Notes: generated from the sequence alone by a model not told the origin. A stretch of DNA of 61,058 nucleotides from Candidatus Anderseniibacteriota bacterium (GCA_052034485.1 JBPOIM010000020.1:1-61058), one strand, 5' to 3'. Numbered from the stretch's first letter, positions 1 to 56,563 are shown. A program made the numbers and translations.

Positions 1-1179
1 ATATATATCATCAGCTATACATTTCTTGCCTGGGCAGCACTCATTGTTTTAAGTAGAGCAAAGAAACAGGCTCTTTGGGTATCTACTCAAGCCGCACTTT
101 GGATGGTTGCCCTCGGAAGCTTTCAGCTTATTCCTTCTGTGCTATGGCTTCAGGAATTCCCCGATCAAGCATTTGTTGGATCAACGTTTACTTATAATGC
201 GCTGCCGGAAATTTTATTTGGCAGGCATGCCCAAGGTGAGTTTATCCTTCGAGACCAATTAAGTCAGTGGCATGAGTATGGAGCATATATCGGGTACGGA
301 ACGCTTATATTAGCTATTATTGGAGCATCATTTTTAAAGTCTCATAAAGTTGTTCGAGTTCTTGTAACAGGAGTTCTTCTAACCTTGCTTGTATCTTCTA
401 TAGGGCCTTTATTACAACCAATCCTTCAAATAATCCCCTTCATTCCTCGTTCAAATATTTCACGTCTTACTATTTTTTCAGTGCTTTGTTTTGGGCTACT
501 GGCAGGCTTTGGCCTAAAGAGGCTTATGCAGATTCTCCCAAAGCAGTACAAGATTATACCCATTGTAATAGCAGGGTGTGTCGCAATAGATATGCTAAGC
601 CTTGCCTACCCTATTGCGCAGCAAGCATTTGTCGTACCTCCTCTCCGGCAAAAAATTCCGCATGCGGCATATCCTATTGCACACACAACAGAAACATATC
701 CATTTAATAATAAAAAGATAGAAGTGCCACGTTCATATGAACTTTTACTTCAAGGGTATGGAACCTCTTCTTTCTGCTCTGTGCTAGGGCCAAACGAATC
801 GGTGTATGCAGCAACCCCAGGAGATACATTCGCGCCTTTCTTGGAATCAGAAAATCCAGCTGAGCTACATCTTACATATTGGTCGCCTAACTATATATCA
901 TTCAAATACAAGACCGACCAAAGCACTGCCGTTCGCCTACAAACAAACTACGCGAAAGGCTGGAGATCAAGCGGGGCTCCGATAATTCCCACAAAAAGTA
1001 CCCTGATGGTTCAAATACCTTCAGGAAGCGGGAGCGTGACACTTACCTATCGTCCACGAGGAATGATTACAGGAATTATAATCACAATACTCTCGCTATG
1101 TGCTGCAATAGTTCTACTTCTGCAAAAGCGACCGGTATACAGCAACCATACTATCGGCAGCAGCATCCCAGGAAAATAG
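1..1179 (+). CDS. YfhO-like polytopic membrane protein, putative GT-C glycosyltransferase (C-terminal part; 5' end outside window)
   Basis: Frame 1 is open from nt 1 to the stop at 1177-1179 (ORF track starts at ATG 103). Collinear by eye with the C-terminal half of ORF 42893..44725: IPFIPRSNISRLTIFSVLCFGLLAGFG vs LSFIPRSNISRVILLAVIPISLLAGFG, NYAKGW vs NYAIGW, YRPRGM vs YIPRGM, and a final TM helix. Confidence 0.7.
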   Translation: MYIISYTFLAWAALIVLSRAKKQALWVSTQAALWMVALGSFQLIPSVLWLQEFPDQAFVGSTFTYNALPEILFGRHAQGEFILRDQLSQWHEYGAYIGYGTLILAIIGASFLKSHKVVRVLVTGVLLTLLVSSIGPLLQPILQIIPFIPRSNISRLTIFSVLCFGLLAGFGLKRLMQILPKQYKIIPIVIAGCVAIDMLSLAYPIAQQAFVVPPLRQKIPHAAYPIAHTTETYPFNNKKIEVPRSYELLLQGYGTSSFCSVLGPNESVYAATPGDTFAPFLESENPAELHLTYWSPNYISFKYKTDQSTAVRLQTNYAKGWRSSGAPIIPTKSTLMVQIPSGSGSVTLTYRPRGMITGIIITILSLCAAIVLLLQKRPVYSNHTIGSSIPGK

Positions 1180-2241: not shown

Positions 2242-2243
2242 AC

Positions 2244-4504: not shown

Positions 4505-4507
4505 GGA

Positions 4508-6538
4508 TCATTGAGCGGTAAAGAGTGGATTCTGAATGGTTAATGTATCAGACCCGGTATGAGAAAAAGAAAATGTAGTTACACCCGGTGGTACGGATTG
4601 AGTATACACGACACGATTGCCTTCTTTTTTTTCAGAAAGAATGTTTCCTGCCGCATCTTTCATAATTAATCGTGAACTCTCTGGAGGAAGCGTCACTGCG
4701 AAAGAAACAGTTTTTTGAGAGCTGGTAATATTTACAACATCAACAGAAGCAACAGATGGAATTTCTGCAAAAGTTTCACCCTCTTTATCTCGTCGCACTC
4801 CTTCCCAGCCATCCCTTCTAATAAGAAACAGCCCGTCGGTTTGAGGTTTTTTCCCGTTCCATGTATACAACATCGCGTCCCCAAAAGAACTAGAGCTAAA
4901 GACCCCTGGCGAGCTCAAGAACGAACTAATTGCATCGTTTTGCGATGCATTAAGAGAATCGTTGTGAACAATAATTGCCCCAACGTGCATCCAGGCGAGT
5001 ACATCAGGCAGCGTTTCTGACAAATCTTGCCCAAAAAATTCGCTTCTTCGGTCAGCAAGATCCGTTGTTCGTACGTATAGTAACTGTCGAAGCGCTGGAG
5101 CAGATCGCTCTAAGTCAAAAATATCAGGAGCTTCTCCTCTTTCAAGAGCTATATTGCCTAGCACTTCTTTTTTATGAAAAGCGCTTGCATACAATGCGCG
5201 AGATGCGGCCGTATAGTTTGTTGCAGCTGGGATTTCGATAATGCGCGGCTCCTGAACTGTTTGCAGCCCCTGGTATACGGGCGAAAGGACAGCAGACTGA
5301 GTCGGAAATGGGAAGAACGCGAATTCAACAAGGATCGCACATGCAATAAGCACAGAAATACGAATACTATGCTTATTCGTTGCAAGAACCCAGCCAAATA
5401 ATACCACCACGGAAAAACCAACAATTACCCCCGCTCGAGATACCACGCGAATCGCAGAGAATACTGGCAAATGTGCCAGAAACGCGTATGGAAGCGGTAT
5501 GGACGTTTCATTCCCAAAGAGATGCAAAACCGGACCAAGAGCAATGAGTCCAAAAATAATAATGGAAGATATCCAAAGTCGTTTTTGTTTTACGGGAATA
5601 TGACGATGAAAAAATAAAATACCCAGAATAATAGTTATGCCCAAATACTGAACCGACTCCGGAATATTTCCGGTAAAATACTGTCCAAATAATCCATGAG
5701 AAATATCTCCCCACAAAGGGTGAAATGGCGGTGGCGTAATAAACGCAAAAAGATCTGCAGAAAATCGGATCGTTTGCTGAATACCAAGATCAAGCGCTCC
5801 TGTCTCCCCCGAGGCTAGCTTAAGGGTCGGAATAAATGGAACAACGATACCAAGAAATGCAATTCCTATAAGAAGTATAGTAATTGGTAAATGTTTTTTC
5901 ACCGAAGCAATGACTTCTTTTCTGTAAAAGAAAAAAGCAACGCAACAAAAAATTCCAAGCCATAAAATATAATGATGTTCCATCCAAGCCTGAATAATAA
6001 GCAACACTCCAAGAATTATGGCGTACATTGCCTTACGAGAACGTGCGAGCGCCAGAAATGCTGTACAGATAAAAGGAATCCATGCTATTTGCATTGCCCC
6101 GAAGTGCCCAAGAGAATGCGCAATGTGATATGGCAAGAACATATATGCGATTCCAGAGAGCATCGGTGCGGAGGAAAATAGTTTTTCAGTATTTGTAAGA
6201 GCCTGAATAAACAGCGCCATCGCATACCCAGCAAGAACAAACTGAATAAGCCAAACAATATTATATGCGACTGGTTCACCAAATAGAACATGAAACCCTA
6301 TCCACGGCCATACAGAAAGGTTGGCAAGTCGAGGCTCTCCGGAGCCGGTTACATCCTGAAGAAACGCCTGCATTCCACCATCAGCCTTCACCTGCATTCT
6401 CCACATGGTTTGCCACGGATCACCACCAGTGCCAGCTATCGTAGTATGTAAATGAAAAACAAGAAAAAGGTTAGCAACAATAACTAAAAACGCAAAAACT
6501 CCAATGGCTTTACTATGTTGCAATACAACCTCATTCAT
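4508..6538 (-). CDS. large polytopic membrane protein, GT-C-like (family unassigned)
   Basis: 676 aa. Many hydrophobic helices in the first ~420 aa, GGDPWQTMW right after TM1, and a soluble C-terminal ~230 aa. Start overlaps the stop of the upstream GT-C gene by 8 nt (ATGAATGA). Confidence 0.5.
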   Translation of the reverse strand: MNEVVLQHSKAIGVFAFLVIVANLFLVFHLHTTIAGTGGDPWQTMWRMQVKADGGMQAFLQDVTGSGEPRLANLSVWPWIGFHVLFGEPVAYNIVWLIQFVLAGYAMALFIQALTNTEKLFSSAPMLSGIAYMFLPYHIAHSLGHFGAMQIAWIPFICTAFLALARSRKAMYAIILGVLLIIQAWMEHHYILWLGIFCCVAFFFYRKEVIASVKKHLPITILLIGIAFLGIVVPFIPTLKLASGETGALDLGIQQTIRFSADLFAFITPPPFHPLWGDISHGLFGQYFTGNIPESVQYLGITIILGILFFHRHIPVKQKRLWISSIIIFGLIALGPVLHLFGNETSIPLPYAFLAHLPVFSAIRVVSRAGVIVGFSVVVLFGWVLATNKHSIRISVLIACAILVEFAFFPFPTQSAVLSPVYQGLQTVQEPRIIEIPAATNYTAASRALYASAFHKKEVLGNIALERGEAPDIFDLERSAPALRQLLYVRTTDLADRRSEFFGQDLSETLPDVLAWMHVGAIIVHNDSLNASQNDAISSFLSSPGVFSSSSFGDAMLYTWNGKKPQTDGLFLIRRDGWEGVRRDKEGETFAEIPSVASVDVVNITSSQKTVSFAVTLPPESSRLIMKDAAGNILSEKKEGNRVVYTQSVPPGVTTFSFSHTGSDTLTIQNPLFTAQ

Positions 6539-8063
6539 GGTTTATACTATATACCAAAAACATAGGAACATCCCGTACAGATAAAATGGTTTTTGGCGTT
6601 TCTCCATGAAGTTGTTCTAGCAATAGCCTGGCCGCACTATCAAACCCGGTTCGAGCAGGAAGACTTTCAGGAATAATAAGCTCAGTCACTTCAGGATCAA
6701 GATTTTTTATACTCCCTTCGTTTGGAAGTCCTCGTATATTGCCACGCTTTGTTGCGTCGACATACGGAGCGACTAAGCTGTCCATTGGTATGGAAAAGAC
6801 TGCTTCTGGATCCGAATTATTAATATATTCAGAAATAAGTCGCGAACCATTCCCGACATCTACAAGCAACCTTTTTCCATCGGAAGATGGAAAAAGAATA
6901 TTGTATGAACTAATAACGTGCGGAAAGTATGGCCAAATAAATATTCCCTGTAAGACAATAAGCCCTCCAATCATTATCATCTTATCAACCTTATGCCTCA
7001 TAAGTAAGGTAAGCCAACCGATAATTCCAATGCACGCAAGCATTGCGATTGCGGGCAGATTCTTTCGAGCATGATCGCCGTTAAGATAGATTAGTAGTAA
7101 CCCATGCCAAAGTCCCGCAAGCAAGAGAACATCAAGAGGCGCAAATTGAAATCCATTTTTTCTTATTTCGACAAATCTATGCCAGCAATATAGTAGGCAT
7201 CCCACAAAAGCGAAAGATGAAAGCGTAAATACAAAAAGAGGAGGGTGGTAGCCAGGCCAATAATATATTTCCTGAACCGTTGAATGCAGTTCAGCACGAG
7301 AAAGAACATCAAGGATTCTACGAATTGGATGAAGAATAAAAGGTGGCCAAATGACACACATGAAAACATACGCCGTGCCGAAAAAAACACTCGCCCTTTT
7401 GGCAATTTCTTTATAGGAAGCGCGAGGAATGTAGCTTGCGAGAATAAAAGCAATTGGAGCTGTTATAAGTGCAGGGGATTTTGAAGTAAATGCCAATGCG
7501 AACCAAGCCCCTGCGGCTCCAGTCCAAATAATTGATCGCTTCTCGTATGCCACAACGGCCGAAAGAAGCATTCCAACAACCGAAATCGCCATAAGGACAT
7601 CCACGCTAACAGAGCGAGAGATCCCCCAAATCCACGGCTCAAGCCCAAACAATACAACAAATAACGCTGCCTCAACTTCCCTCTTCTTAAACAGTGCGAC
7701 ATTGGTAATTGTTCCGTATAACAACATCAGAGCAACACTGCATGCAATACCCCAAATATAGCGAGCCCATACTGCTGCCTCCCTCTTATCGTCAAATGAC
7801 CACGCTTCGTATGTGTTCTTCAGTCCATGGCTCCATTGATAGATATTTACAACTGGCCCAACCACAGTCATAAGTGGAATCGCCGGATGATTAGATAGTG
7901 GAAACCGAACAGCGCCGGCAAAATCGCCTGCAAACAAAGAATTCACATATACCTGAGATCGATCAACCCATGGCTGCTCATCCTGAATAAAAAAATTATC
8001 AGGAATAATTAATCGTGGCAGAAAAACTGCGACAATGAATAAAATTTTCCAAATTACTTTCAT
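6531..8063 (-). CDS. GT-C glycosyltransferase, PMT/ArnT-like (GT39/GT83 type)
   Basis: 510 aa, polytopic. TM1 is followed by LPRLIIPDNFFIQDEQPW (acidic DE loop-1 motif). ATGA-type 4-nt overlap with the upstream methyltransferase gene. Confidence 0.7.
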   Translation of the reverse strand: MKVIWKILFIVAVFLPRLIIPDNFFIQDEQPWVDRSQVYVNSLFAGDFAGAVRFPLSNHPAIPLMTVVGPVVNIYQWSHGLKNTYEAWSFDDKREAAVWARYIWGIACSVALMLLYGTITNVALFKKREVEAALFVVLFGLEPWIWGISRSVSVDVLMAISVVGMLLSAVVAYEKRSIIWTGAAGAWFALAFTSKSPALITAPIAFILASYIPRASYKEIAKRASVFFGTAYVFMCVIWPPFILHPIRRILDVLSRAELHSTVQEIYYWPGYHPPLFVFTLSSFAFVGCLLYCWHRFVEIRKNGFQFAPLDVLLLAGLWHGLLLIYLNGDHARKNLPAIAMLACIGIIGWLTLLMRHKVDKMIMIGGLIVLQGIFIWPYFPHVISSYNILFPSSDGKRLLVDVGNGSRLISEYINNSDPEAVFSIPMDSLVAPYVDATKRGNIRGLPNEGSIKNLDPEVTELIIPESLPARTGFDSAARLLLEQLHGETPKTILSVRDVPMFLVYSINHE

Positions 8064-8851
8064 GCAACGTGAGCTACTGCAATAAAGTCGAGAGAATTTT
8101 GAACATTGTCACTTCCAACGGTAAAGTTTTTTGATGTTATATCGGATACTTCTTTTGCGTGCTTGCGAAAACTTGCTTTTTTAATCAAGAAATATGACAC
8201 AAACGCATATACATCAAGAAGAATTGGACGTGGCAGCCACTCTCGGGCTTTCAGGAAATCTAACTTTAAAATTTTATCTCCTATTTTCTGCTTACTGGTT
8301 CGATAGTCAATAACCTTCTTATCACCAAAAACTCCTAAAATTTCTGAATTAGAAAAATGCCGTGAAAATAAACTCCGTATTTCTTCATAGCCCACCTCAT
8401 GAACATGGTAAGGATTAAAACTATGAAACACGTCTGTATTTGGAGTACTAACGATAATTACCCCACCAGGCTTAGTAACGCTCTCCAGCGCCTTAAGGAA
8501 TGCATCGTGATCCTGAACGTGTTCAATGGTCTGAAAACAGCAAACCACATCAAATTTCTCACCATGAAAAATTTCAGGAGCTTGAAACAAATTTCCCTGT
8601 ACATAAGAAACGTTCGCGTTTCCGTATTGCTCCCCCGCCAGAGAAACAGCCTGCGCATTATAATCAAGCCCAACAGCTTTGGTCGCCACCTTCCCAAGCA
8701 CAGAAGTGCCGTACCCCTCACCCGAAGCTACGTCTAAGACGGTTTTTCCTTCTGCGTACCTCGCAGCAAATTCATACGCAACCAAGCTTTGTTGATACGT
8801 AACGTTAAACATCTTTTCCGGTAAAATGCGTTCCCCACTATATGTAGACAT
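8060..8851 (-). CDS. class I SAM-dependent methyltransferase
   Basis: 263 aa. Motif I VLDVASGEGYGTSVLG, then GLDYN, FDVVCCFQTIEHV and KPGGVIIVSTPN. Hydrophobic segment PILLDVYAFVSYFLI near the C-terminus. Confidence 0.85.
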   Translation of the reverse strand: MSTYSGERILPEKMFNVTYQQSLVAYEFAARYAEGKTVLDVASGEGYGTSVLGKVATKAVGLDYNAQAVSLAGEQYGNANVSYVQGNLFQAPEIFHGEKFDVVCCFQTIEHVQDHDAFLKALESVTKPGGVIIVSTPNTDVFHSFNPYHVHEVGYEEIRSLFSRHFSNSEILGVFGDKKVIDYRTSKQKIGDKILKLDFLKAREWLPRPILLDVYAFVSYFLIKKASFRKHAKEVSDITSKNFTVGSDNVQNSLDFIAVAHVA

Positions 8852-8940: not shown

Positions 8941-8946
8941 ACATAA

Positions 8947-10874: not shown

Positions 10875-10876
10875 CA

Positions 10877-22039: not shown

Positions 22040-22045
22040 GTGCCC

Positions 22046-31461: not shown

Positions 31462-31464
31462 TAT
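31459..31464 (+). promoter_or_regulatory. -10-like hexamer TAATAT at -12..-7 of ATG 31471
   Basis: tttTAATATttagatATG. Overlaps the stop codon of the upstream gene. Confidence 0.3.
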
Positions 31465-31470
31465 TTAGAT

Positions 31471-40604: not shown

Positions 40605-40610
40605 ACTGCA

Positions 40611-40619
40611 ACCATACCA
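40611..40619 (-). promoter_or_regulatory. extended -10 TGgTATGGT at -15..-7 of asnB ATG 40604 (minus strand)
   Basis: Reverse complement reads tttTGGTATGGTtgcagtATG. Confidence 0.45.
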
Positions 40620-40624
40620 AAAAC

Positions 40625-40633
40625 TGGTATACT
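40625..40633 (+). promoter_or_regulatory. extended -10 TGgTATACT at -15..-7 of ATG 40640
   Basis: aacTGGTATACTcgggaaATG. Back-to-back with 40611-40619 inside a 35-nt divergent spacer. Confidence 0.5.
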
Positions 40634-40639
40634 CGGGAA

Positions 40640-46923: not shown

Positions 46924-46966
46924 ATCAATTAAGCCTAGCTGATCTAGTAAGAACTTTCAATTGGAG

Positions 46967-46972
46967 TATTAT
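46967..46972 (+). promoter_or_regulatory. -10 hexamer TATTAT at -12..-7 of ATG 46979
   Basis: ggagTATTATgcctatATG. Confidence 0.4.
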
Positions 46973-46978
46973 GCCTAT

Positions 46979-48325
46979 ATGCATCTCTATATTCGAAGGA
47001 CATTACTCGGTATTTCATATACTGCGTTTGTTATTATTGCGCCAATCGTCATTTTATACGCGGTAGGATATCGCCCACAAATATCCTCTCCAATTCCTCG
47101 GGCCGTAGGAGTAATCCTTGCAGACTCCAATCCCCCAAAAGCATCAATTATTATTAACGGAATTGACAAAGGCACTCTTCCGCGAGCAGTACCGAATATT
47201 GAACCAGGAATAACTTCTATTCAAGTAACAAAAGATGGGTATACGTCCTGGCAGAAATCTCTTGAAATCAAATCCGCAGAGGCAACAGATGTTCGATCCA
47301 TCGTTCTTCTTCCATCCTCATTCGACGAAACGAATGTAGTCGCGAACGCGCGAGCATTCTCCCTTTCTCCAAGCGGACTATTTATTGCAACAGCAAACAC
47401 TGACGGCAAACTTCACATTCAAGACATCGAGGGAGCCCCTATCAGCGCAAGCGGACAACTTTCAGGAAGTGCGAATCGAATTGAGTGGTCTCCAGACGGT
47501 ACGTACATCATCGTAGAGTCTGGAAAGCGAGTATATGACCTATTCCACTTCGACCACAACACGCTAGAAAAGGTATCAAGCAAAGCACTCGTGGGAGCAT
47601 CACACATAAGCTGGAGCCCAAGCACAGTTGGTAGCCTATACGGCCAAACACCCGAAGGAGATGTATTCCTTTACTCTATCACCACCGGAGCAAAGGAAGT
47701 AATTGTTAAGAAAGTGAACACATACGAAATAGCGAACAGAATGATCTACTACCAGACATTCCAAAATACTCTCTATGGGTCACCATTGCGCTCCATTGAA
47801 CCAAAAGTTCTCTCTCGGGATACCGGGAAACCACTTGAAAAGATTTCGCTTGGAAACAATGGCAATCTCATCCTGATAGCACACGATGGTCAACTACAAC
47901 TCTTGAAAAACCATGGGGAATTTAAAACCCTCTCCCCCTCCGTAATACATGCATCATGGTCTCCAGATGGCGAACTTATTCTCATTCAAACAGCACCAAC
48001 AGAACTGTATGTATACAATGTTGAAAACGAACGTTTTTTTGCAATTCCTCAAGGAGAGCTTCATTTAGTAACACGCCTATCGCAATCGATTACCAATCCA
48101 CAATGGTTTTCAGATAGTGAACATATTTTCTACCAACTAAATGGCTCGCTCATGTTCTCAGAAGTAGATACCAGAGACCACGCAATTGCGACGCCAATAA
48201 AATCTCTCCCAATACTTGGAAATGTTGCAATCGGAGGAAGCGCAAAAAGTATCTTCTCCATACAGCAAGAAGGAAAGACATCAAATCTCATTCAAACATT
48301 CCTCCAGACAAAAGAGGATAGATAA
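46979..48325 (+). CDS. membrane-anchored PEGA-domain / beta-propeller (TolB-like WD40) protein
   Basis: The ORF-track start 46961 is a TTG; ATG 46979 lies 6 nt downstream of TATTAT. N-terminal TM helix. PEGA-like ASIIINGIDKGTLPRAVPNIEPGITSIQVTKDGYTSW. Repeated WSPDG-type blades (EWSPDGTYI, SWSPSTVG, SWSPDGELI). Confidence 0.6.
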   Translation: MHLYIRRTLLGISYTAFVIIAPIVILYAVGYRPQISSPIPRAVGVILADSNPPKASIIINGIDKGTLPRAVPNIEPGITSIQVTKDGYTSWQKSLEIKSAEATDVRSIVLLPSSFDETNVVANARAFSLSPSGLFIATANTDGKLHIQDIEGAPISASGQLSGSANRIEWSPDGTYIIVESGKRVYDLFHFDHNTLEKVSSKALVGASHISWSPSTVGSLYGQTPEGDVFLYSITTGAKEVIVKKVNTYEIANRMIYYQTFQNTLYGSPLRSIEPKVLSRDTGKPLEKISLGNNGNLILIAHDGQLQLLKNHGEFKTLSPSVIHASWSPDGELILIQTAPTELYVYNVENERFFAIPQGELHLVTRLSQSITNPQWFSDSEHIFYQLNGSLMFSEVDTRDHAIATPIKSLPILGNVAIGGSAKSIFSIQQEGKTSNLIQTFLQTKEDR

Positions 48326-48326
48326 T

Positions 48327-48374
48327 AAAAAAGCCGAGTGAAGTTAGATACTAAGAGTATCAACAACACTCGGC
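48327..48374 (-). terminator. rho-independent terminator downstream of csrA
   Basis: On the minus strand: GCCGAGUG-uuguu-GAUAC-ucuua-GUAUC-uaacuu-CACUCGGC followed by UUUUUU (A-run 48327-48332 on plus). Starts 22 nt after the csrA stop. Confidence 0.6.
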
Positions 48375-48396
48375 ACAACCTCTTCCCCAGGAACGT

Positions 48397-48639
48397 TCAG
48401 GGCTGCTTCTCCGGGGGAAATAATGGCGCATCAACATTTTGAACCTGTTCAGCCTGGTCCTGCCGGATCTGAGCCTGGTCCCGTTGAATCGCATCATAGA
48501 CTTCCTGCCTATGCACAGGAATCTCTCTGGGAGCATTAATTCCGAGACGCACTTTGTAGCCCCGGATATCGACAACGGTGATAACAATATTATCCCCGAT
48601 GACGATACTTTCATCTCTCTGCCGCGACAGCACTAACAT
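48397..48639 (-). CDS. csrA: carbon storage regulator CsrA
   Basis: 80 aa. MLVLSRQRDESIVIGDNIVITVVDIRGYKVRLGINAPREIPVHRQEVY. GGAGGG SD (48647-52) 7 nt from the ATG. Confidence 0.9.
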   Translation of the reverse strand: MLVLSRQRDESIVIGDNIVITVVDIRGYKVRLGINAPREIPVHRQEVYDAIQRDQAQIRQDQAEQVQNVDAPLFPPEKQP

Positions 48640-48721: not shown

Positions 48722-48751
48722 AAAATAACACACGTACTTATAAATTGTCAA
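48722..48751 (-). promoter_or_regulatory. candidate sigma70-type promoter of csrA: TTGACA - 18 nt - TATTTT
   Basis: Reverse complement of 48722-48751 reads TTGACAatttataagtacgtgtgtTATTTT. Starts 2 nt after the stop of the upstream SDR gene. Predicts a ~75-nt leader. Confidence 0.35.
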
Positions 48752-48753
48752 TA

Positions 48754-49749
48754 CTACCAGTACTTTTCCTTGTTTTCCTTATAGTACGCGACCATCCTCT
48801 TAATGCCCTCCTGGAGAGGCACAGAGGGCTTCCAGGACGTTATACTCTGAATTTTCGTAGTATCCGCAACATAGTTGCCGGTCTCATTTTTTTCATAATC
48901 CTCTGGCCAAGGAATGTGAGCCTTTGTACCAGATCCAACTTCCTTCAAAATGGCATCTACCATGGACACGAACGTAATCCGTTCGTGTGTCCCAATGTTA
49001 TATACTTCACCCTTTTCTCCATGAAGCGTTAGCTCGATAAAAGCATCAACAATATCATCGATGTATAAATAATCACGCTCTTGCTCCCCATCCCCAAACA
49101 CCGTGATAGTTTTGTTTTCCATTGCCTGACGAATAAACCAGCCAACTATAGAATACTTTCCGTGCTTCATTTGCTGCCCAGGTCCATATGGATTTGGAAT
49201 ACGAATAGAAATCGTATCAATACCAAACGTGTGCGTATAGTACTTGTAATACTTTTCTGCGAGTAACTTATGAATGCCGTACAGCGATAGGGGTTCAGTT
49301 GGATGACTTTCCGAAACAGGAACTGTGAGAATTTTCCCATATACCATACGAGATGAGGAAAAGAGTATCTTTGCAGCAGGTGCATGCTTTCGAACTGCCT
49401 CAAGTACCGTAAGGTGCCCCTTCCCGTTAAACTCCAGGTCCAAGAAAGGATCGTCTTTAGAATCAAGGTAGCTTACCTGCGCCGCAAAGTTATAAATAAT
49501 ATCCTTGCCTGCAACAATCGTATCCATAAGCTCCTGATCCCGAATATCCCCTTCAATAAACTGAATCTTGTCTCGTATTGGCTCAAGATTAAATGCATTC
49601 CCTCCATACAATACAAACATAGCATCAAGAACCGTTACCTCCGCACCAAGCTCGACAAGCTTTCGGGCAAGATTACTCCCAAGGAACCCTGCTCCTCCGG
49701 TAATCAGAACCTTCTTCCCTGCAAAAAATGTTTTGCTATCTTTTTTCAT
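48754..49749 (-). CDS. NAD-dependent epimerase/dehydratase-family SDR
   Basis: 331 aa. VLITGGAGFLGSNLARKLV, SSSRMVYG and YGIHK (YxxxK). No TDE triad, so not called rmlB. Confidence 0.75.
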   Translation of the reverse strand: MKKDSKTFFAGKKVLITGGAGFLGSNLARKLVELGAEVTVLDAMFVLYGGNAFNLEPIRDKIQFIEGDIRDQELMDTIVAGKDIIYNFAAQVSYLDSKDDPFLDLEFNGKGHLTVLEAVRKHAPAAKILFSSSRMVYGKILTVPVSESHPTEPLSLYGIHKLLAEKYYKYYTHTFGIDTISIRIPNPYGPGQQMKHGKYSIVGWFIRQAMENKTITVFGDGEQERDYLYIDDIVDAFIELTLHGEKGEVYNIGTHERITFVSMVDAILKEVGSGTKAHIPWPEDYEKNETGNYVADTTKIQSITSWKPSVPLQEGIKRMVAYYKENKEKYW

Positions 49750-50878
49750 GAGCTTTTATGAGCTTATCATATCGATCCATAATATTCTTCCAGTCGTACT
49801 CCAACGCGTATTCACGGCTCTTGTGCCCCATAGAAGTTCTCAACGCTTCATCATTAATAAGTTTCACCATTCGGTCAGCAAGAATATTTACGTCATCACC
49901 CAAAATCAAATATCCGTTTTCTCCTTCATGCACAATTTCATTATTTCCACCCACGTTGCTCGCAATAATAGGAAGCCCAGCACCCATTGCTTCCAAAATA
50001 ACAGAGGGCATACCTTCCGAAAGCGAAGTGAGTACAAAAATATCTGCGTACTGGTACGACTTTTCTAGCTGATCATACGGGACCATTCCAACATACGATA
50101 TTAAATCACTCACATGAAGCTCTTCGGCAAGCGCATCAAGTTCAGCGCGGTGTGCCCCCGTGCCAACAACCTCAACTTCAAACGGAACTTGTACCTTTTC
50201 TCGAACCAATGGCAACGCGCGAACCACACGATGGAATCCTTTTCGAGGAATAAGTCTTCCAATAAAGAGAATTTTCACTTTTGGATTCTTCGGTCGGTCA
50301 ATGGGGCGAAATCGATCCGTCTCTACACCATTCGGAATAGTATAGAACTCTGAATGCGGATCTGCCTGCATTGCAAGCCTCTGAAGATCATCTGAACAGA
50401 CAGATCGGAATGACGCTTTTCTCCAAATAGCTTTGAGCAACGGTGTAATAAATGGGTAAATTTTCGTAAAACGTGAAGGATTTGCATTTGGAATATCCGA
50501 CCCACCAAAATACACTCCGTAAGGAATTCCTTTTATAAAATAGAGAATCCATGCAACCCACCCTGCCGGTACCGCAAAAAACGCAAAGGTAAAATCAACC
50601 TTGTTCTTCAACGTAAAGAATAACGCGTACACAAGAGCTGAGACTCCAAAACTAATCAATTCAATAACAGAGCTATAGTCTTTGTATTTTCGAAGTGCAG
50701 GAATACGAATAACAGTAGCTCCATCAATCACTTCACGATGTGGCAGTTTTTTATATCGCGATGTAATAAGCGTTACCTTGTGCCCGGCTCGTACTAAGTA
50801 TCGAATTGCATATTTCGTAACGGTAGAACCGCCACCACCGATAGGGGGAAATTCATTGTTGATAAAGAGAAGGTTCAT
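49736..50878 (-). CDS. glycosyltransferase, GT4 family
   Basis: 380 aa. N-terminal NNEFPPIGGGGSTVT loop (as in ORF 3353..4504) and C-terminal LTSLSEGMPSVILEAMGAGLPIIASNVGGNNEIV. Confidence 0.85.
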   Translation of the reverse strand: MNLLFINNEFPPIGGGGSTVTKYAIRYLVRAGHKVTLITSRYKKLPHREVIDGATVIRIPALRKYKDYSSVIELISFGVSALVYALFFTLKNKVDFTFAFFAVPAGWVAWILYFIKGIPYGVYFGGSDIPNANPSRFTKIYPFITPLLKAIWRKASFRSVCSDDLQRLAMQADPHSEFYTIPNGVETDRFRPIDRPKNPKVKILFIGRLIPRKGFHRVVRALPLVREKVQVPFEVEVVGTGAHRAELDALAEELHVSDLISYVGMVPYDQLEKSYQYADIFVLTSLSEGMPSVILEAMGAGLPIIASNVGGNNEIVHEGENGYLILGDDVNILADRMVKLINDEALRTSMGHKSREYALEYDWKNIMDRYDKLIKAHEKR

Positions 50879-50887
50879 AGACCCTTT

Positions 50888-51823
50888 TTAAAAGCCCTTG
50901 GTATCTTTGATAGAGTAGGGTTTCTTTTCTGCGTAATACGTATGCGCCACAATGTCGGCAAGCACCCCAGAAAGCAGGAATTGGAACCCAAGCAATACAA
51001 GCAATACCGCAAGGAGAGGAGAGGACCTTCCCGACAATGCAATCAATCGGAACAGCCAGAGAATCCCGAGCGTTCCTCCGAGCAAAAACCCTGTGAGGAT
51101 AAATACCGCCCCAATAGCTCCGAAGAAATGCATCGGTCGTGCAGAATACTGAATCCAAAACTTTACAATCAATAAATCTAAAAATCCTTTCAGCTTTTTT
51201 CGAACATTATATTTTGTTGTACCAGTCGTACGAGGATGATGGCGAACAACCATCTCCCCAACGCGAAAACCTTTCCAAGAAAGTAGTGCGGTAATATATC
51301 GGTGCATTTCACCATACAGCTCTAGGTCTTCGAGTGCTTCTTTGCGATAAACCTTCAAACTGCACCCCTGATCATGAATCTTTTCACCTGTAACCTTTTT
51401 GCGAATCCAGTTTCCGATTTTACTTCCCAGCTTTAGCACGCTTTTATCCTGACGTTCTTTTCTCCAGCCAGATACAACATCAAGATCCTCGTCTCGTAAC
51501 TTTTGGATCATCGCAGGAATATCCTCTGGGTCATTTTGCAAATCAGCATCCATTACGATAACAACGTCTCCCGTTGCCGCAGAAAAACCTGCAGACCACC
51601 CCGCAGTTTGGCCAAAGCTCCTTCTAAATCGAATAACTTTTACATGGCTATCCGCCGAAGATAGTTCGGATAAAATACTATATGTAGAATCCGTACTACC
51701 ATCATCAACAACAATAAGCTCCCATGCTCCGTCCATTTTCTCAAAAACTCGCTTCGTAGCCTCGTAGAGAGCCTTAATTGACCCCTCTTCGTTGTGTGCT
51801 GGTACGACAATGCTATAGTCCAT
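50888..51823 (-). CDS. polyprenyl-phosphate glycosyltransferase, GtrB/ArnC-like GT2 with two C-terminal TM helices
   Basis: 311 aa. YSIVVPAHNEEGSI, LIVVDDGSTDST, RFRRSFGQTAG and VMDADLQNDPEDI. C-terminal helices FFGAIGAVFILTGFLLGGTLGILWL and LLAVLLVLLGFQFLLSGVLA. Confidence 0.8.
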   Translation of the reverse strand: MDYSIVVPAHNEEGSIKALYEATKRVFEKMDGAWELIVVDDGSTDSTYSILSELSSADSHVKVIRFRRSFGQTAGWSAGFSAATGDVVIVMDADLQNDPEDIPAMIQKLRDEDLDVVSGWRKERQDKSVLKLGSKIGNWIRKKVTGEKIHDQGCSLKVYRKEALEDLELYGEMHRYITALLSWKGFRVGEMVVRHHPRTTGTTKYNVRKKLKGFLDLLIVKFWIQYSARPMHFFGAIGAVFILTGFLLGGTLGILWLFRLIALSGRSSPLLAVLLVLLGFQFLLSGVLADIVAHTYYAEKKPYSIKDTKGF

Positions 51824-51829
51824 AGAGAA

Positions 51830-51858
51830 AAACTACACTAATATGTATAATTTGTCAA
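51830..51858 (-). promoter_or_regulatory. candidate promoter TTGACA - 17 nt - TAGTTT, with the -10 at -12..-7 of ATG 51823
   Basis: Reverse complement reads TTGACAaattatacatattagtgTAGTTTttctctATG. Lies in the 57-nt spacer between rmlA and the GtrB-like gene. Confidence 0.45.
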
Positions 51859-51880
51859 ATACCCTGAGCATGTCGAAGGG

Positions 51881-52759
51881 TCAATTCTCTTCAGCAACCT
51901 CAAGAAGGTACGATCCATACCCGCTTTTAAGGAGCCCTTGGGCAATTTCAACAAGCTGTTCCTTGGTAATATATCCCATCCTATACGCAACTTCCTCAAT
52001 ACAGCCGATCTTTAATCCCTGGCGCTGCTCCACAATCTGCACAAAGTTACTTGCCTGCAATAACGACGAGTGCAACCCCGCATCAAGCCAAGCAACTCCG
52101 CGAGGAAGCGCCGTAGCATACAAATTTCCCGCTTTCAGATAGGCATTGTGCAAATCAACCATTTCGAGCTCTCCTCGAGCAGACGGAGTGAGCTGTTTTG
52201 CGTACTCTACAACTTTGTTATCAAAAAAGTACAACCCCAAAATAGCATAAGGAGACTTTGGATGCTCTGGCTTCTCTTCAATCGAAATCACTTTTCCGTT
52301 TGCATCAAATTCAATAACCCCGGAACGCTCAGGGTCAGGAACATGGTATCCAAAAATCATATGTCCACCATCTGTTTCAATCTTCTTTCGTGCATCCTGT
52401 ACGATTCCAGAAAGGCCGCTTCCATATAGAATATTGTCACCTAACATCATGGCAACACTATCGTCTCCGATAAAATCTGCGCCAAGAATAAATGCTTCCG
52501 GTAATCCATTCGGCTTTTCTTGAACCTTGTATGTAAATTTCAGTCCTATACTCGAACCGTCCCCAAACAACGATTCAAATATCGGCAAATCTTTTGGAGT
52601 AGAGATAATCAAAAACTCACGGATACCCGAAAGCATCAGTGTAGAAATTGGGTAATAAATCATCGGCTTGTCATACACCGGAAGGAGCTGTTTGCTTACT
52701 GCTCGAGTAAGAGGGTAGAGCCTTGTACCCGAACCGCCTGCTAAAATAATGCCTTTCAT
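51881..52759 (-). CDS. rmlA: glucose-1-phosphate thymidylyltransferase
   Basis: 292 aa. [54 protein letters not shown], near-collinear with E. coli RmlA as I remember it. Confidence 0.9.
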
Positions 52760-52780
52760 AGATAGAAAAAGTATAATCCG

Positions 52781-53767
52781 TTATGCCGATTCCCCCAAAT
52801 GAATATGAGGTGCCAAATAGTCCTGCACATATTCTCGTATCGCATCATCAAGAGAGTAATTTTTGGAAATATCAAAGCCAGCAGAAACCAACTTTGACAC
52901 ATTTGCCTGCGTAAAGTACTGATACTGCTCCTTAAGCCCATCAGGCATATCGATAAATTCAATTTTTTCTGGCTTATCGGCGGCAGCAAACAATGCCCGA
53001 GCAACATCAAGCCAACTTCGCGCAATACCCGTACCAACGTTATATATTCCATTTGCTTCCGGAGTATCCAGAAAAAAGAGTGTGGCTCGAACGGCATCCT
53101 TCACGTAAATGAAGTCGCGCTGCTGTTCTCCGTCACCATATTTATCTTTATATGATTTAAATAATGTAATTGGCTTTCCCTCTGCAACGTCAGGATATTT
53201 AAGCGCTATCACACTCTTCATTGTTCCTTTATGCCATTCGTTTGGACCAAATACGTTAAAATAGCGAAGCCCCACAACAGAATCAAGATACCCACCATCG
53301 CGCGCCCATATGTCTACATCCAGCTTAGATTTTCCGTATAGGTTTAATGGCTCAAGGTCGTTAAAGAGTGCATGATCGTCTTTGTACCCATTACTACCGT
53401 CACCATACGTTGCAGCACTCGATGCGTATACGCAGCGTACACCCCTGTCTGCACACCAACGAATAATATCTTTGCTATATTCAACGTTATTATCGAGTAA
53501 GTAATCCCAGTTTTTTTCTGTCGTTGAGCTACATGCCCCCAAGTGAATAATCGCCTCTATACCCTCGCCATCAAGCTCACCTGCAAGTAATTGTTCTCGA
53601 AAATCAGCAATACCAATAAGTTGATCATGGCGCAAATGGCCAACATTGTGTTCCTTCTCGTCATCGTCTATCTCATCAACAATAATAATATCTTCCCTTC
53701 CTCGCGCATTGAGCGCCCACACTACCGCGCTTCCAATAAATCCTGCTCCACCCGTTACAACAATCAT
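52781..53767 (-). CDS. hldD: ADP-L-glycero-D-manno-heptose 6-epimerase
   Basis: 328 aa. MIVVTGGAGFIGSAVVWALN and IIHLGACSSTTEKNWDYLLDNNVEYSKDIIRWC...VYASSAATYG, matching the RfaD/HldD pattern. Confidence 0.85.
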   Translation of the reverse strand: MIVVTGGAGFIGSAVVWALNARGREDIIIVDEIDDDEKEHNVGHLRHDQLIGIADFREQLLAGELDGEGIEAIIHLGACSSTTEKNWDYLLDNNVEYSKDIIRWCADRGVRCVYASSAATYGDGSNGYKDDHALFNDLEPLNLYGKSKLDVDIWARDGGYLDSVVGLRYFNVFGPNEWHKGTMKSVIALKYPDVAEGKPITLFKSYKDKYGDGEQQRDFIYVKDAVRATLFFLDTPEANGIYNVGTGIARSWLDVARALFAAADKPEKIEFIDMPDGLKEQYQYFTQANVSKLVSAGFDISKNYSLDDAIREYVQDYLAPHIHLGESA

Positions 53768-54267
53768 AATGATTTAATTTTTTCAATAATTTCACTGGTT
53801 GATAAATTAGGACGCCGCGCAACGGTATATCCCACAACTCCTAGTTGCTGCATCATCGGATACTCTACCCACGATTCTTCAGAACCATGGTCTGAACCAT
53901 TTACATGAACATTCGGACGTATTGCAGGAAGAAACGACCCATGCGGTTCTTCGGAATACATCCCCTCGATAATTACCACATAATCCACGCACACAAGCGC
54001 AGCCAAAAGAGCCGCACGCTCCGCCTGAGGAATGATTGGCCGAGTTGGACCCTTACCAGAACGCACAGACTCATCGGAATTAAGTCCTATAAATAACACG
54101 TCGCCTTGCTTTTTTGCTTCTTCTAGAAAATCCAAATGCCCAGCCTGTAGCAAGTCAAACGAGCCATTTGCAGTAACAATTTTCTTCCCCTGAGAGCGAA
54201 GCTCTTCCGCCTTTTGAGAAGCTTGTTCTAGCGTCAATATTTTTTCAGTTCGCCACAGGTGTTCCAT
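53764..54267 (-). CDS. hldC: D-beta-D-heptose 1-phosphate adenylyltransferase (RfaE domain II type, stand-alone)
   Basis: 167 aa. VTANGSFDLLQAGHLDFLEEAKKQGDVLFIGLNSDESVRSGKGPTRPI (cytidylyltransferase-fold HxGH-like motif). 4-nt overlap with hldD. Confidence 0.8.
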   Translation of the reverse strand: MEHLWRTEKILTLEQASQKAEELRSQGKKIVTANGSFDLLQAGHLDFLEEAKKQGDVLFIGLNSDESVRSGKGPTRPIIPQAERAALLAALVCVDYVVIIEGMYSEEPHGSFLPAIRPNVHVNGSDHGSEESWVEYPMMQQLGVVGYTVARRPNLSTSEIIEKIKSL

Positions 54268-54307
54268 ATTATGTATGTGTACTATATACCGTACAACAAA
54301 AAAAGGG

Positions 54308-56563
54308 CTACCTTCCAGGAAGGCCCCTCATGTCTACTACGATATCATTGCCAGACACCTTGGGTTCCTCCTCCACAAAATAGAGCTTCTGAAAGGAAAC
54401 AGGAGTAAACAAATGAAATAAGTTTGTTGTAACCGTCCCTCGTATATCGTGAGGAACTCCAACAATATATACATCACCAACAGATGTTTTCCCGTGCGCC
54501 GCTTCTTGAAAACGTATTACGGCTGTTTGAGTAACATTGCTTACATCACGATACGCCTGAGAAAAGTCTGGGAGCCTCGTTACCCATAGCGCGTAACACA
54601 ATCCAACTGCTACAATCGTATACTCGAATATTTGTCGCGCCTTCGGAGATTGCGCAACAAGATGCACGAACGACATACTAGTAAAGCCCACAAGCATAGC
54701 AGGCCCCCATACAGACAAGCTAAGCCAACGCAAATTCCATACATCGGGTATCAACAGTACTGGCATAAGCATAAGTACCCACCATGACCCCGCAAACAAC
54801 GTAATGGTACGGGCATGTACATTCTTTCTCCACAGCACCAACAGACCTATGTATATCGCAATGCATATAACCCCTGGGTAATATGGTCCCTCATCAACTT
54901 TTGCAAAAAATGACGCATATGCCCCTTCAATACCAGAAAAAATTGACTGAAGAGTACTATTTTTTACCCATAGCCACTTTTCTGCAGACCATGCGCTATA
55001 CACAATCGTATTTCTCGCAATAACATCAGGAGACACCCGAATAGAATATGAACTATCCTCAATGGGGTAATGCGGCAACGTTGGGTCATACACCGCTACG
55101 GTTCGAATAACAAAATATACCCCTACGCATACCGTCAGTATTGCAAAGGGAACTATGCGCGACATAATAAATTTCTTTTGGAATAATCGCTTTCGCGTAA
55201 ACAGTGCGTCCAAAAGAACTATCATCGGAAGAAGAAACACTGCGTTTTCTTTTGAGAATAGCGCGAGCACATATGCAATACCCACAGCCCAAAACCAAGT
55301 CTTTTTCGCAGTTGCAAGGTACACCGTATAGAACAAAATTGTTGCCAATATAAAGAATGCAGCAATAGTGTCTTCTGTTGTGCTCCACCAAAATGCACTA
55401 CTTACATGACTAGAATGAGCCACCCATAACACTGCAGCCAAAAAGCTCATTGCGTAGTTTCGGAGAAACAGCCAAGACAACAAGAATAACAAACTTGCGG
55501 TTGCGGCCAATACAAGAAGGGCAAAAAAGTGATACCAAAATGCCTGTATGCCAAATAGCATCCATATAGCCCACGGGAACATCGAAAATGATATTGGCCG
55601 ATAAAATATAATCGGAGTTACGTTTAAATTATATGGGTCCCTATATGCATGGTTTGTAAACCATAGCTGCAGAGGGTTGGAAGCGAGCGCTTCAATGCGC
55701 ATCAATTTAAAATGATCATCTTGCCAATGAAATAGCTGCGTTGCCGACGAATAAAACGCTGGCACAATACATAACAGCACAACAATCCATAAAGCACCCT
55801 GCTTCCAAGAAAACTGATCCCAAGTTTCTTTCCAAAACCTTTCACTATCAAGCTTCTCAGAAAATCGCCATCCAATGCCAAGGACAAGGGTCGCACATAC
55901 TGCAAGAATTATCCCAACCCATACGAGCGTATGCTGTGGATGATTCATCCATTGCCACACGAGCGCAAGTATCGTTGGCCGCTCATACACAACAACCCCT
56001 AAGTCCCCCGGCCGTTCTTTGTTATTTATAACTAACGACCCCTCTTCTAAGTTTGTGCTATCGAGTTGGTATGAAAGATGAAGTGCCCTAGCAGAAGAAA
56101 GCCCTGGTGCCTCAAGCAAGAAATCAAGCTGCTTGCCCATTTTCTTAATAACTTCAAATTCAAAATACAATGTATCGTGATCAGGAAGCCCCTTAAGAAG
56201 TCTCGGATCGTATACATGGCTTGGCGCTTGCCCCCGTGCCAGATGCACACTTGAAGCGACTGTTCGTATATCACTGTCGCTTCCCGCTTCGCGAACATGC
56301 AGGATAAGCTCTTGATCAGGAGCAATACCCTTCGCCGTATCGTATGCAAACGCAATACCCGCAACATCCCCTCGGACAAGAAGACGCTGTCCAGCGACAG
56401 TACTACCAAATGTTTTTGTAAGATGTGTTCCGTCGGGAGAATTTACAGTAAGCGGCACCAAAAATGGCCGCTTATACCCTCCAGCAAAAAAAGATACTAC
56501 AAGCGCAAGCAGACAGATGGCAACACATACCGTGATAATCGTACTGCGTGCCCCCAACTTCAT
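54308..56563 (-). CDS. GT-C-like polytopic membrane protein with N-terminal extracytoplasmic module, embedded in the heptose operon
   Basis: 751 aa. TM1, a ~170-aa soluble module (VAGQRLLVRGDVAGIAFAYD...LILHVREAGS...LYFEFEVI...DFLLEAPG), then a polytopic core with FHWQDDHFKLMRIEALASN and ALFSKENAVFLLP. Confidence 0.6.
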   Translation of the reverse strand: MKLGARSTIITVCVAICLLALVVSFFAGGYKRPFLVPLTVNSPDGTHLTKTFGSTVAGQRLLVRGDVAGIAFAYDTAKGIAPDQELILHVREAGSDSDIRTVASSVHLARGQAPSHVYDPRLLKGLPDHDTLYFEFEVIKKMGKQLDFLLEAPGLSSARALHLSYQLDSTNLEEGSLVINNKERPGDLGVVVYERPTILALVWQWMNHPQHTLVWVGIILAVCATLVLGIGWRFSEKLDSERFWKETWDQFSWKQGALWIVVLLCIVPAFYSSATQLFHWQDDHFKLMRIEALASNPLQLWFTNHAYRDPYNLNVTPIIFYRPISFSMFPWAIWMLFGIQAFWYHFFALLVLAATASLLFLLSWLFLRNYAMSFLAAVLWVAHSSHVSSAFWWSTTEDTIAAFFILATILFYTVYLATAKKTWFWAVGIAYVLALFSKENAVFLLPMIVLLDALFTRKRLFQKKFIMSRIVPFAILTVCVGVYFVIRTVAVYDPTLPHYPIEDSSYSIRVSPDVIARNTIVYSAWSAEKWLWVKNSTLQSIFSGIEGAYASFFAKVDEGPYYPGVICIAIYIGLLVLWRKNVHARTITLFAGSWWVLMLMPVLLIPDVWNLRWLSLSVWGPAMLVGFTSMSFVHLVAQSPKARQIFEYTIVAVGLCYALWVTRLPDFSQAYRDVSNVTQTAVIRFQEAAHGKTSVGDVYIVGVPHDIRGTVTTNLFHLFTPVSFQKLYFVEEEPKVSGNDIVVDMRGLPGR

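Follow-up and report, generated by a model that had tools for sequence, protein, structure and literature searches.

Why an uncultured bacterium with a small genome would devote about half of a single contig to membrane glycosyltransferases of the GT-C type is the question raised by a 61,058-nucleotide stretch of Candidatus Anderseniibacteriota bacterium (GCA_052034485.1, JBPOIM010000020.1:1-61058), referred to below in its full length as the window. A preliminary description had recognised 16 such genes in it, interleaved with synthases of polyprenyl-phosphate sugars. Profile, structure and genome comparisons lead us to regard the window, with moderate confidence, as a cell-envelope glycan locus of Andersenbacteria-lineage Patescibacteria, in which a conserved core is combined with modular extracytoplasmic decoration and not with one fixed assembly line. 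Genes and proteins are named by their first coordinate, with g1 for the first (Table 1).

Sixteen GT-C genes in one locus

All 16 open reading frames proposed as GT-C genes are real, being free of internal stop codons and ending at stop codons, with the first one cut by the window edge. The starts chosen at five of them are ATG codons slightly inside the longest reading frame, and were judged reasonable. Their summed length of 29,757 nt is 48.7% of the 61,058, in line with the original estimate of about half of the window, and a Kyte-Doolittle scan finds 7-12 hydrophobic segments in each protein. Because paralogues among them are at most 37% identical, they are old, which rules out recent tandem duplication or an assembly artefact as the origin of the set. 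Sixteen members of one enzyme superfamily among 49 genes cannot be chance.

The GT-C identity first proposed has some support for every one of the 16, since profile and structure searches returned GT-C families or the GT-C fold and nothing else. The assignments fall into four tiers. Six proteins exceed the Pfam gathering cut-offs (GA; 26.1 bits for PMT_2, PF13231; 22.7 for PMT, PF02366; 28.5 for YfhO, PF09586), namely 10877, 15377, 19017, 25331 and 35228 for PMT_2 and 32417 for YfhO; four of these, 15377, 19017, 25331 and 35228, also pass the cut-off for PMT. The second tier consists of 4508, placed by structure, and the third of 6531, 20465, 27462, 22763, 40640, 37289, 42893 and g1, placed by near-threshold matches, paralogy, profile comparison or homologue annotation. 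The assignment of 54308, the fourth tier, is the weakest. Pfam gave no match for 4508, 22763, 27462 and 54308, NCBIfam gave no usable match for the nine least-classified proteins, and 4 of the 16 are without any match in either database. None of the 16 was placed in a family other than glycosyltransferases, and transporter and O-antigen ligase or polymerase families were rejected for the unplaced proteins, none giving a significant match.

Protein 4508 has no Pfam, NCBIfam or PDB sequence match, even when a 45-sequence profile is used (PDB up to E 10). Predicted structures of 4508 and 54308 were compared with the PDB by Foldseek. The AlphaFold2 model of 4508 has a mean predicted local distance difference test score (pLDDT) of 90.9, and its best matches are AftD (E 1e-7), EmbC, yeast and human STT3, PglB, ArnT and AftA; the likeness to AftD and EmbC is one of fold only, at 9-12% identity. 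The C-terminal beta-sandwich gives weak matches resembling carbohydrate-binding modules (CBMs). Judged by this model, 4508 represents a GT-C family that has no existing profile; at least one such family would be present in the locus, extending the GT-C catalogue. Single-sequence PDB searches of 15377, 37289 and 10877 returned nothing even at E 10, and sequence-level search of the PDB is too insensitive for these three proteins and for the 4508 family.

The third tier is tied together by relationships among its members. By BLASTP, 6531 is related to 35228 (7e-12) and is also linked to 19017, while both halves of 27462 match 20465 (3e-26 and 9e-18). Protein 22763 belongs to a small family, here family D, with 79 representatives among 1.84 billion proteins. 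Among 51 of its homologues, 21 match PMT_2, 11 match PMT, 2 match GT87 and one weakly matches Wzy_C, and the best PDB match of the family profile is yeast Pmt2 (E 0.034). Profile-profile comparison with hhalign connects family D to 40640 (100% probability, E 5e-45, residues 203-748) and to 37289 (97.1%, E 7e-11, 349 columns), the latter having in addition a weak Agl23 match. Protein 42893 itself has a DUF6077 match alone, below GA, and no YfhO match; many homologues that are 45-70% identical to it carry precomputed PF09586 (YfhO) or PF10131 (PTPS_related) annotations. It is 37% identical to g1 (E 1e-80), whose C-terminal part matches Pfam YfhO at E 1.3e-5 and 24.2 bits, below the GA of 28.5. 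The full length of g1, 775 residues, is seen in a near-identical stretch on the 89,311-bp contig CAZJEM010000001.1 of the metagenome-assembled genome (MAG) GCA_964545025.1 (the sister contig, L040 in our numbering of loci).

For 54308, two close homologues were found, together with remote matches to proteins combining TPR and PMT_2 domains (E 6e-9). Its AlphaFold model has an overall pLDDT of 63; in the transmembrane (TM) core, residues about 210-690, the means of 10-residue blocks range from 40 to 94 and mostly from 70 to 94. The top 29 Foldseek matches of this model in the PDB are all proteins of the GT-C fold. A link to family D is not claimed, the hhalign probability being only 58%. Together with 27462 and 40640, this protein has an extracytoplasmic N-terminal domain, the order being signal-anchor, a domain of 150-190 residues, a helical hairpin and the GT-C module. 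None of the three N-terminal domains has a Pfam match, and hhalign detects no relationship among them (probability at most 1%).

A conserved acidic residue behind a transmembrane helix

An acidic pair after a leading TM helix had been noted in nine of the proteins. The feature is more general: of the 15 complete proteins, 14 have D, DE, DD or DxD at a distance of 2-9 residues past a TM helix. In 42893 the motif is DWD and comes after a second helix, and in 10877 it is a single D. The helix preceding the motif is rich in K and R on its opposite flank, and in 27462, 40640 and 54308 the motif follows the predicted helical hairpin, consistent with an external location.

Wherever homologues were available for comparison, which is the case for 12 proteins, these residues are invariant or conserved. 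In the 4508 family (45 homologues), G38, G39, D40 and Q43 are invariant and P41 and W42 nearly so (at least 90%), giving the motif GGDPWQ. Family D (51 members) has invariant D43, T181, R182 and E184, with which GGDAYNY and TRQEG of 40640 line up at the invariant D and at TRxE. D63-W-D65 is nearly invariant in the 42893 family. QDEQPW of 6531 is kept in the closest four of its five homologues, the fifth retaining the DE pair alone (LDEQRW). TDENK of 15377, EDESAY of 20465, DEG of 27462, the DE of 19017 and the acidic motif of the 25331 family are likewise conserved in homologues, as are the DD after TM1 of 32417 (in its homologue) and T(A/T)DE of 35228 (in eight homologues). QDDHF of 54308 is conserved and its D282 is aligned across the remote matches; 37289 has GDEGSE after TM1. 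The Pfam PMT alignments begin past loop 1, and the equivalence of these DE pairs with the catalytic DE of PMT is positional only.

Putative donor synthases lie beside the GT-C genes

On the non-cytoplasmic side of the membrane, GT-C enzymes draw on sugar donors linked to a lipid phosphate, as do ArnT, PMT, Emb/Aft and YfhO with CsbB (PMC5836110, PMC8035078, PMC11127046). Four GT2 units of the window resemble ArnC, GtrB, DPM1, AglJ and PpgS, which are polyprenyl-phosphate-sugar synthases, in agreement with the DPM1/GtrB/ArnC type first given to them. The count of four also stands (10131, 14581, 50888 and the N-terminal domain of 25331), except that the fourth is not a separate gene but is fused to a GT-C module. 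The two short GT2 proteins, which are TM-less, and the 25331 domain find their best NCBIfam matches among dolichyl-phosphate-hexose transferase, AglJ, ArnC, PgfS and PpgS (AglJ at 6e-35 for the 25331 domain), and share the motifs IPTYNE...DDNSPDGT...DAD, which we take to be DPM1-like. Over its full length 50888 matches PDB entries of ArnC (9bhc, 3e-46), GtrB (5ekp, 3e-29) and archaeal dolichyl-phosphate-mannose synthase (3e-18), and its TM peaks fall at residues 237-273.

Each GT2 unit adjoins a GT-C gene or is fused to one: 10131 precedes 10877, 14581 is divergent from 15377, 25331 is the fusion, and 50888 belongs to the minus-strand block of 54308. In the DegT-GT2-GT-C triad at 8947-12571 the genes overlap or abut. 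From this context, the GT-C enzymes of the window may use polyprenyl-phosphate-linked donors supplied by the adjacent or fused units. The fusion is not an assembly artefact, since the identical 707-residue protein is present in three independent assemblies (contigs of 61, 79 and 89 kb), in which other window proteins recur likewise. Three homologues in relatives' loci are unfused proteins of about 510 residues.

A constant core and variable modules

Motifs of the 4508 family, searched against 185,579 species genomes, gave 36 loci, all in Patescibacteria. The order of a 4508-type GT-C followed by GT4 genes was found in all 36 and the full GT-C-GT4-GT4-GT4 arrangement in 32; of the other four, L009, L012 and L026 are on contigs that stop inside the GT4 run and L028 is without the third GT4. 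A short GT2 gene usually lies divergently upstream of this core. The remaining GT-C genes are lineage-variable, numbering one to five per about 22 kb and differing in family between species. Because the core is constant in the 36 loci while the neighbouring GT-C genes vary, the lineage has a conserved 4508-GT4x3 core and an expandable set of GT-C modules. The 4508 type was found across Andersenbacteria and Parcubacteria, and the present contig is the most GT-C-dense among the loci compared.

The closest relatives (50-58% identity) retain the order 22763-methyltransferase-6531-4508-GT4x3-g1. Another relative retains 37289-AsnB-40640-42893-MreB-MurA-PEGA/WD40-CsrA, but about 50-70 kb away from its own 4508 core. 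The PEGA/WD40-MreB pair adjoins the 4508-type core in distant Parcubacteria loci (L035-L038) and a 42893 homologue in another Andersenbacteria genome (L043), which suggests a conserved link between genes of cell shape or wall synthesis and the glycan locus. A gene of AsnB type recurs in related glyco-loci (L011, L014, L015, L018, L020, L026, L028, L043 and L044), a hint that a sugar acid or some other component of the envelope is amidated.

Two further arrangements occur in the relative represented by L044 (GCA_034680565.1, JAXOUH010047048.1). At 1-1395 it encodes a 464-residue protein with a GtrA_DPMS_TM domain and a weak PMT_2 match, which looks like a GT-C fused to a flippase-like module and is without counterpart in the window. 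It also has a small DUF2304 membrane protein beside the GT2 gene upstream of its 4508 homologue; the window has none.

Proposed pathway and its alternatives

In the pathway that we propose, dTDP-rhamnose, a nucleotide-linked heptose and the nucleotide forms of amino and C-methyl sugars would be made in the cytoplasm, and cytoplasmic GT4 enzymes would build a lipid-linked core at the inner membrane face, with further GT4 and GT9 enzymes supplied by the region seen on the sister contig. GT2 enzymes would move one sugar at a time from a nucleotide donor to polyprenyl phosphate, a flippase encoded outside the window would move the charged carriers across the membrane, and the GT-C enzymes, using the conserved acidic residue of external loop 1, would pass the sugars on to the glycan that grows outside. 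The operon of the 4508-type GT-C and three GT4 genes probably makes the common core, and the species-variable GT-C genes probably serve as add-on modules, extending or branching the glycan or attaching side chains to it. What results would be a heteroglycan of complex composition, in part methylated and perhaps amidated, in the form of a lipoglycan or of a polysaccharide linked to the wall. The predicted beta-sandwich of 4508, with its weak CBM-like matches as in AftD/Emb, and the coupling to GT4 genes hint at a glycan acceptor. The stepwise extracytoplasmic assembly put forward in the preliminary description is borne out in its enzymology (GT-C enzymes, acidic residues, GT2 synthases). A single assembly line for one product is not, as the core is constant, the neighbouring GT-C genes are variable and housekeeping genes split the locus.

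Several observations weigh against a modular envelope-glycan locus. Ten of the 16 GT-C assignments rely on sub-threshold, transitive or model-based evidence, and all NCBIfam matches of the GT2 units are far below equivalog cut-offs, so that no specific orthology or sugar identity can be claimed for them. The membrane side of the acidic loop was estimated from hydropathy and the positive-inside rule only. Profile searches of the 49 window genes found no flippase (GtrA, Wzx, MATE or ABC), priming phosphoglycosyltransferase, polymerase or ligase, and because these are absent there the pathway cannot be closed from the window. The matches to the PMT family fit protein acceptors equally well. Finally, MreB, MurA and CsrA interrupt the locus and both strands are used, so that a common function of all 16 genes is an assumption.

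The same PMT matches lead to the view that the GT-C enzymes are mainly PMT/TMTC-type protein O-glycosyltransferases, each paralogue modifying its own surface proteins (pili, S-layer, adhesins) or adding successive sugars to protein-linked glycans. We consider this rather unlikely, though deserving attention: four proteins pass the Pfam model for PMT (GT39) as well as that for PMT_2, the DE pair after TM1 resembles the loop-1 motif of PMT, the remote TPR-bearing relatives of 54308 are named protein O-mannosyltransferase by one source, and the locus includes a PEGA/WD40 surface protein along with the conserved, Cys-containing product of 29902-30417, which is secreted or membrane-bound. However, PMT_2 also holds lipid- and glycan-directed enzymes such as ArnT, and no TPR or MIR acceptor-binding domain was found by Pfam in any of the 16. 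The core of a GT-C with three GT4 genes and the AftD/Emb-like beta-sandwich of 4508 are more typical of polysaccharide assembly, and the sugar-nucleotide repertoire exceeds the known needs of bacterial O-mannosylation.

Variation between species bears on an ordered line like that of the ALG enzymes, in which each of the 16 GT-C enzymes would add one residue to one lipid-linked oligosaccharide for transfer en bloc. The GT-C complement changes around a constant core among related species, which a fixed line would not easily tolerate, and the window has no flippase and no clear oligosaccharyltransferase (the STT3 match of 10877 reaches 22.3 bits against a GA of 24.5). That weak match, the many distinct and anciently diverged paralogues in one place, and the small number of donor synthases per transferase (4 to 16, as in the lumen of the endoplasmic reticulum, ER) still speak for such a line, which we hold to be improbable. 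There is equally little chance, in our estimate, that a considerable share of the 16 do something other than transfer sugars, being instead polymerase- or ligase-like, non-catalytic partners, flippase-associated like Agl23, or transferases of other groups. The failure of 10 proteins to reach family cut-offs, the weak matches of 37289 to Agl23 and of one family D homologue to Wzy_C, and the unrelated N-terminal domains of three proteins would fit such roles. Against them, each family tested has an invariant or conserved acidic residue at the catalytic position of GT-C enzymes, and the significant profile or fold matches all lead to glycosyltransferases of GT-C type or to oligosaccharyltransferases, with no transporter or ligase family among them.

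Comparison with known systems

The known three-component systems comprise GtrB/GtrA/GtrC of Shigella and Salmonella O-antigen, CsbB/GtcA/YfhO of Gram-positive teichoic acids, and the PPPRS/MATE/GT136 system for pentofuranose (PMC5836110, PMC8035078, PMC11127046). The window resembles them in encoding GT2 synthases beside GT-C enzymes, in its YfhO members, in its modular and species-variable content and, as in the GT136 protein ORF12, in a CBM-like C-terminal domain on a GT-C enzyme, here 4508. It differs in having no GtrA, GtcA or MATE flippase gene and 16 GT-C enzymes to 4 synthases instead of a 1:1 ratio. In the known systems, moreover, a single sugar is attached as a side chain to a polymer synthesised elsewhere, whereas GT-C genes dominate this locus.

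In the Arn (PmrF) pathway, the aminotransferase ArnB, the GT2 enzyme ArnC and the GT-C enzyme ArnT modify lipid A with 4-amino-4-deoxy-L-arabinose. The order DegT (8947), GT2 (10131) and PMT_2 GT-C (10877) matches the ArnB-ArnC-ArnT logic, and 50888 matches ArnC; homologues of ArnA, ArnD and ArnE/F were not found in the window, and the matches to ArnC and ArnT lie far below the equivalog cut-offs. Synthesis of lipid A is not known from Patescibacteria, and the acceptor of an Arn-type pathway must therefore differ here.

The synthesis of lipomannan, lipoarabinomannan (LM/LAM) and arabinogalactan in mycobacteria and corynebacteria begins with the GT4 enzymes PimA/B and continues with the GT-C enzymes PimE, Mpt, Emb and Aft, which use polyprenyl-phosphate-linked mannose or arabinose; PpgS/Rv3779 adds galactosamine. 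This had been named, beside the ALG/PMT enzymes of the ER lumen, as closest in organisation. The likeness holds for the logic of cytoplasmic GT4 priming followed by many GT-C steps on few lipid-linked donors and for fold, as 4508 is nearest to AftD and EmbC; the short GT2 proteins score against PpgS, and DUF2304 lies beside GT2 in one relative. It does not extend to family membership or donor supply, in that no window protein belongs to the Emb/Aft (Arabinose_trans) or GT87 sequence families of Pfam and no genes for synthesis of decaprenyl-phospho-arabinose were found in the window, and the three-component and Arn logics are as near. Mycobacterial GT-C genes are spread over several loci, whereas here 16 lie within 61 kb, in a small-genome CPR (candidate phyla radiation) host and not an actinobacterium. 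With the PMT enzymes (GT39: PMT1/2/4, bacterial Pmt) and TMTC the window shares the Pfam PMT/PMT_2 matches, the DE pair in the first external loop and the TPR-PMT_2 remote relatives of 54308; MIR and TPR domains were found in none of the 16.

Four features set this locus apart: a donor synthase fused to its GT-C, 16 transferases to 4 synthases, the dense packing of GT-C genes and a host from the CPR. No description of a GT-C expansion in CPR bacteria, nor of this locus, was found in the literature, which is no proof of absence; a Parcubacteria genome paper only counts 20 glycosyltransferases and rml genes (PMC5220378). The kind of enzyme and the general mechanism are already known, and what is new, as far as the searchable literature shows, is the scale, the layout, the unprofiled GT-C family and the host lineage.

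Implications for the cell envelope

Half of a 61-kb contig given over to GT-C enzymes implies that glycosylation outside the cytoplasm is a large expense for this cell. In Patescibacteria/CPR the envelope is essentially uncharacterised, and the cells are thought to live attached to hosts; for that reason surface glycans likely determine attachment, host range and phage sensitivity. We offer, as a tentative picture that may well need revision, a small-genome and probably episymbiotic CPR bacterium that assembles most of a methylated surface heteroglycan outside its membrane by means of at least 16-17 independently evolved GT-C enzymes, a number close to that of the ER lumen or the mycobacterial envelope. 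In such a cell the unprofiled 4508 family would take part, the fusion would couple donor synthesis to transfer, and the variable modules would create surface diversity for host attachment or phage resistance. The locus offers testable parts in the core operon, the four synthase-transferase pairs including a natural fusion, and an unprofiled GT-C family with a confident model.

Gene content and genomic context

The window is 98.4% coding, with 49 genes and a largest unassigned gap of 114 bp, and its G+C content is even at 40-46%. GC skew is negative in all 2-kb bins (-0.003 to -0.21), independent of gene strand, and AT skew follows gene orientation. Profile searches bear out the sugar-nucleotide genes listed in the preliminary description, its five GT4 genes (1114, 2244, 3353, 17046 and 49736) and its five methyltransferases (8060, 12579, 13249, of C-methyltransferase type, 18238 and 22040). 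The sugar-nucleotide genes comprise RmlA, RmlC and RmlD, a heptose set (SIS/GmhA, PfkB, HAD/GmhB and cytidylyltransferase-like), DegT, five short-chain dehydrogenases/reductases (SDRs) and the AsnB-type amidotransferase; the encoded pathways are those of dTDP-rhamnose, a nucleotide-heptose, amino sugars and C-methyl sugars.

Table 1. Features of the window, with coordinates, strand and supporting evidence (bits, Pfam bit score; SAM, S-adenosylmethionine).
Position	Strand	Feature	Evidence or remark
1-1179	+	g1, YfhO/PTPS-related-like candidate, C-terminal 392 of 775 aa	cut by contig end
1114-2241, 2244-3356, 3353-4504	-	three consecutive GT4 (GT-B, cytoplasmic)	Pfam Glycos_transf_1 E 1e-33 to 1e-40
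4508-6538	-	putative GT-C of previously unclassified family, C-terminal beta-sandwich	structure model
6531-8063	-	PMT_2-like GT-C	PMT_2 25.6 bits, just below GA 26.1
8060-8851	-	SAM methyltransferase, first gene of minus-strand operon 8851 to 1114	Pfam Methyltransf_31/11 E 1e-18
8947-10134	+	DegT aminotransferase	Pfam DegT E 2e-97
10131-10874	+	short DPM1-type GT2	GT2 E 6e-32; best NCBIfam dolichyl-P-hexose transferase, AglJ, ArnC
10877-12571	+	PMT_2 GT-C	PMT_2 53.3 bits
12579-13292	-	SAM methyltransferase	Pfam Methyltransf_25
13249-14577	+	NDP-sugar C-methyltransferase-type protein	Methyltransf_14 E 7e-47 and Zn-binding domain
14581-15297	-	short DPM1-type GT2	GT2 E 3e-30; best NCBIfam AglJ, ArnC, PpgS
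15377-16999	+	PMT/PMT_2 GT-C	PMT_2 53.7, PMT 46.1 bits
17046-18233	+	GT4	profile match
18238-19002	-	SAM methyltransferase	profile match
19017-20462	+	PMT_2/PMT GT-C	PMT_2 46.3, PMT 28.7 bits
20465-22009	-	PMT_2-like GT-C	PMT_2 25.7 bits, just below GA 26.1
22040-22753	+	SAM methyltransferase	profile match
22763-24355	+	divergent PMT_2-related GT-C, small family D	homologue profile matches
24282-25334	+	SDR NDP-sugar dehydratase/epimerase	profile match
25331-27454	+	GT2 (residues about 1-215) fused to C-terminal PMT_2/PMT GT-C, 707 aa	GT2 121, PMT_2 36.2, PMT 25.7 bits
27462-29840	-	GT-C with about 190-aa N-terminal extracytoplasmic domain	paralogue of 20465
29902-30417	+	171-aa protein, one N-terminal TM helix, several Cys	no Pfam/NCBIfam match
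30424-32436	+	two SDR sugar epimerases/dehydratases	profile match
32417-35239	+	YfhO-family GT-C, 940 aa	Pfam YfhO 49.2 bits vs GA 28.5
35228-37243	-	PMT_2/PMT GT-C	PMT_2 32.9, PMT 30.7 bits
37289-38719	-	GT-C candidate	PMT_2 20.1 bits, below GA
38724-40664	-	AsnB-type glutamine amidotransferase	Asn_synthase E 5e-88
40640-42889	+	family D GT-C with about 175-aa N-terminal extracytoplasmic domain	PMT_2 19.4 bits, below GA
42893-44725	+	YfhO/PTPS-related-like GT-C candidate	homologue annotation
44666-48639	both	housekeeping island: MreB, MurA, PEGA+WD40-like single-TM membrane protein, CsrA	profile match
within 48754-54267	-	SDR dehydratase (48754), GT4 (49736), RmlA (51881), SDR epimerase (52781), cytidylyltransferase-like (53764)	profile match
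50888-51823	-	full-length ArnC/GtrB-type GT2 with C-terminal TM helices	PDB matches
54308-56563	-	GT-C candidate, near-orphan, about 180-aa N-terminal extracytoplasmic domain	model and remote homologues
56576-61035	-	HAD/GmhB-like, PfkB kinase, SIS/GmhA-like, RmlD, Nudix, RmlC	profile match

The great majority of homologues of the window genes come from MAGs that carry the name Candidatus Andersenbacteria or Patescibacteria group. Past the left edge of the window, the sister contig (11063-21128) encodes the complete g1, a GT4, a GT9, another GT4, a GT2, a polysaccharide deacetylase, a protein of 391 residues without assigned function and a YfhO-like protein. The GT9, of the heptosyltransferase family, fits the heptose-nucleotide genes at 53764-58675 of the window. 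Near-identical gene sets are titled alternately 'Candidatus Andersenbacteria' and 'uncultured Candidatus Saccharibacteria', a taxonomic inconsistency in which the latter is apparently a generic label.

Homologues of the small protein at 29902-30417 adjoin GT-C genes in two other loci (L021 and L033), making it a candidate acceptor or accessory protein. The Nudix protein at 59610-60461, between RmlD and RmlC, has 283 residues, with no assignment for the first 130 and the Nudix domain in its C-terminal half, and is possibly a nucleotide-sugar hydrolase.

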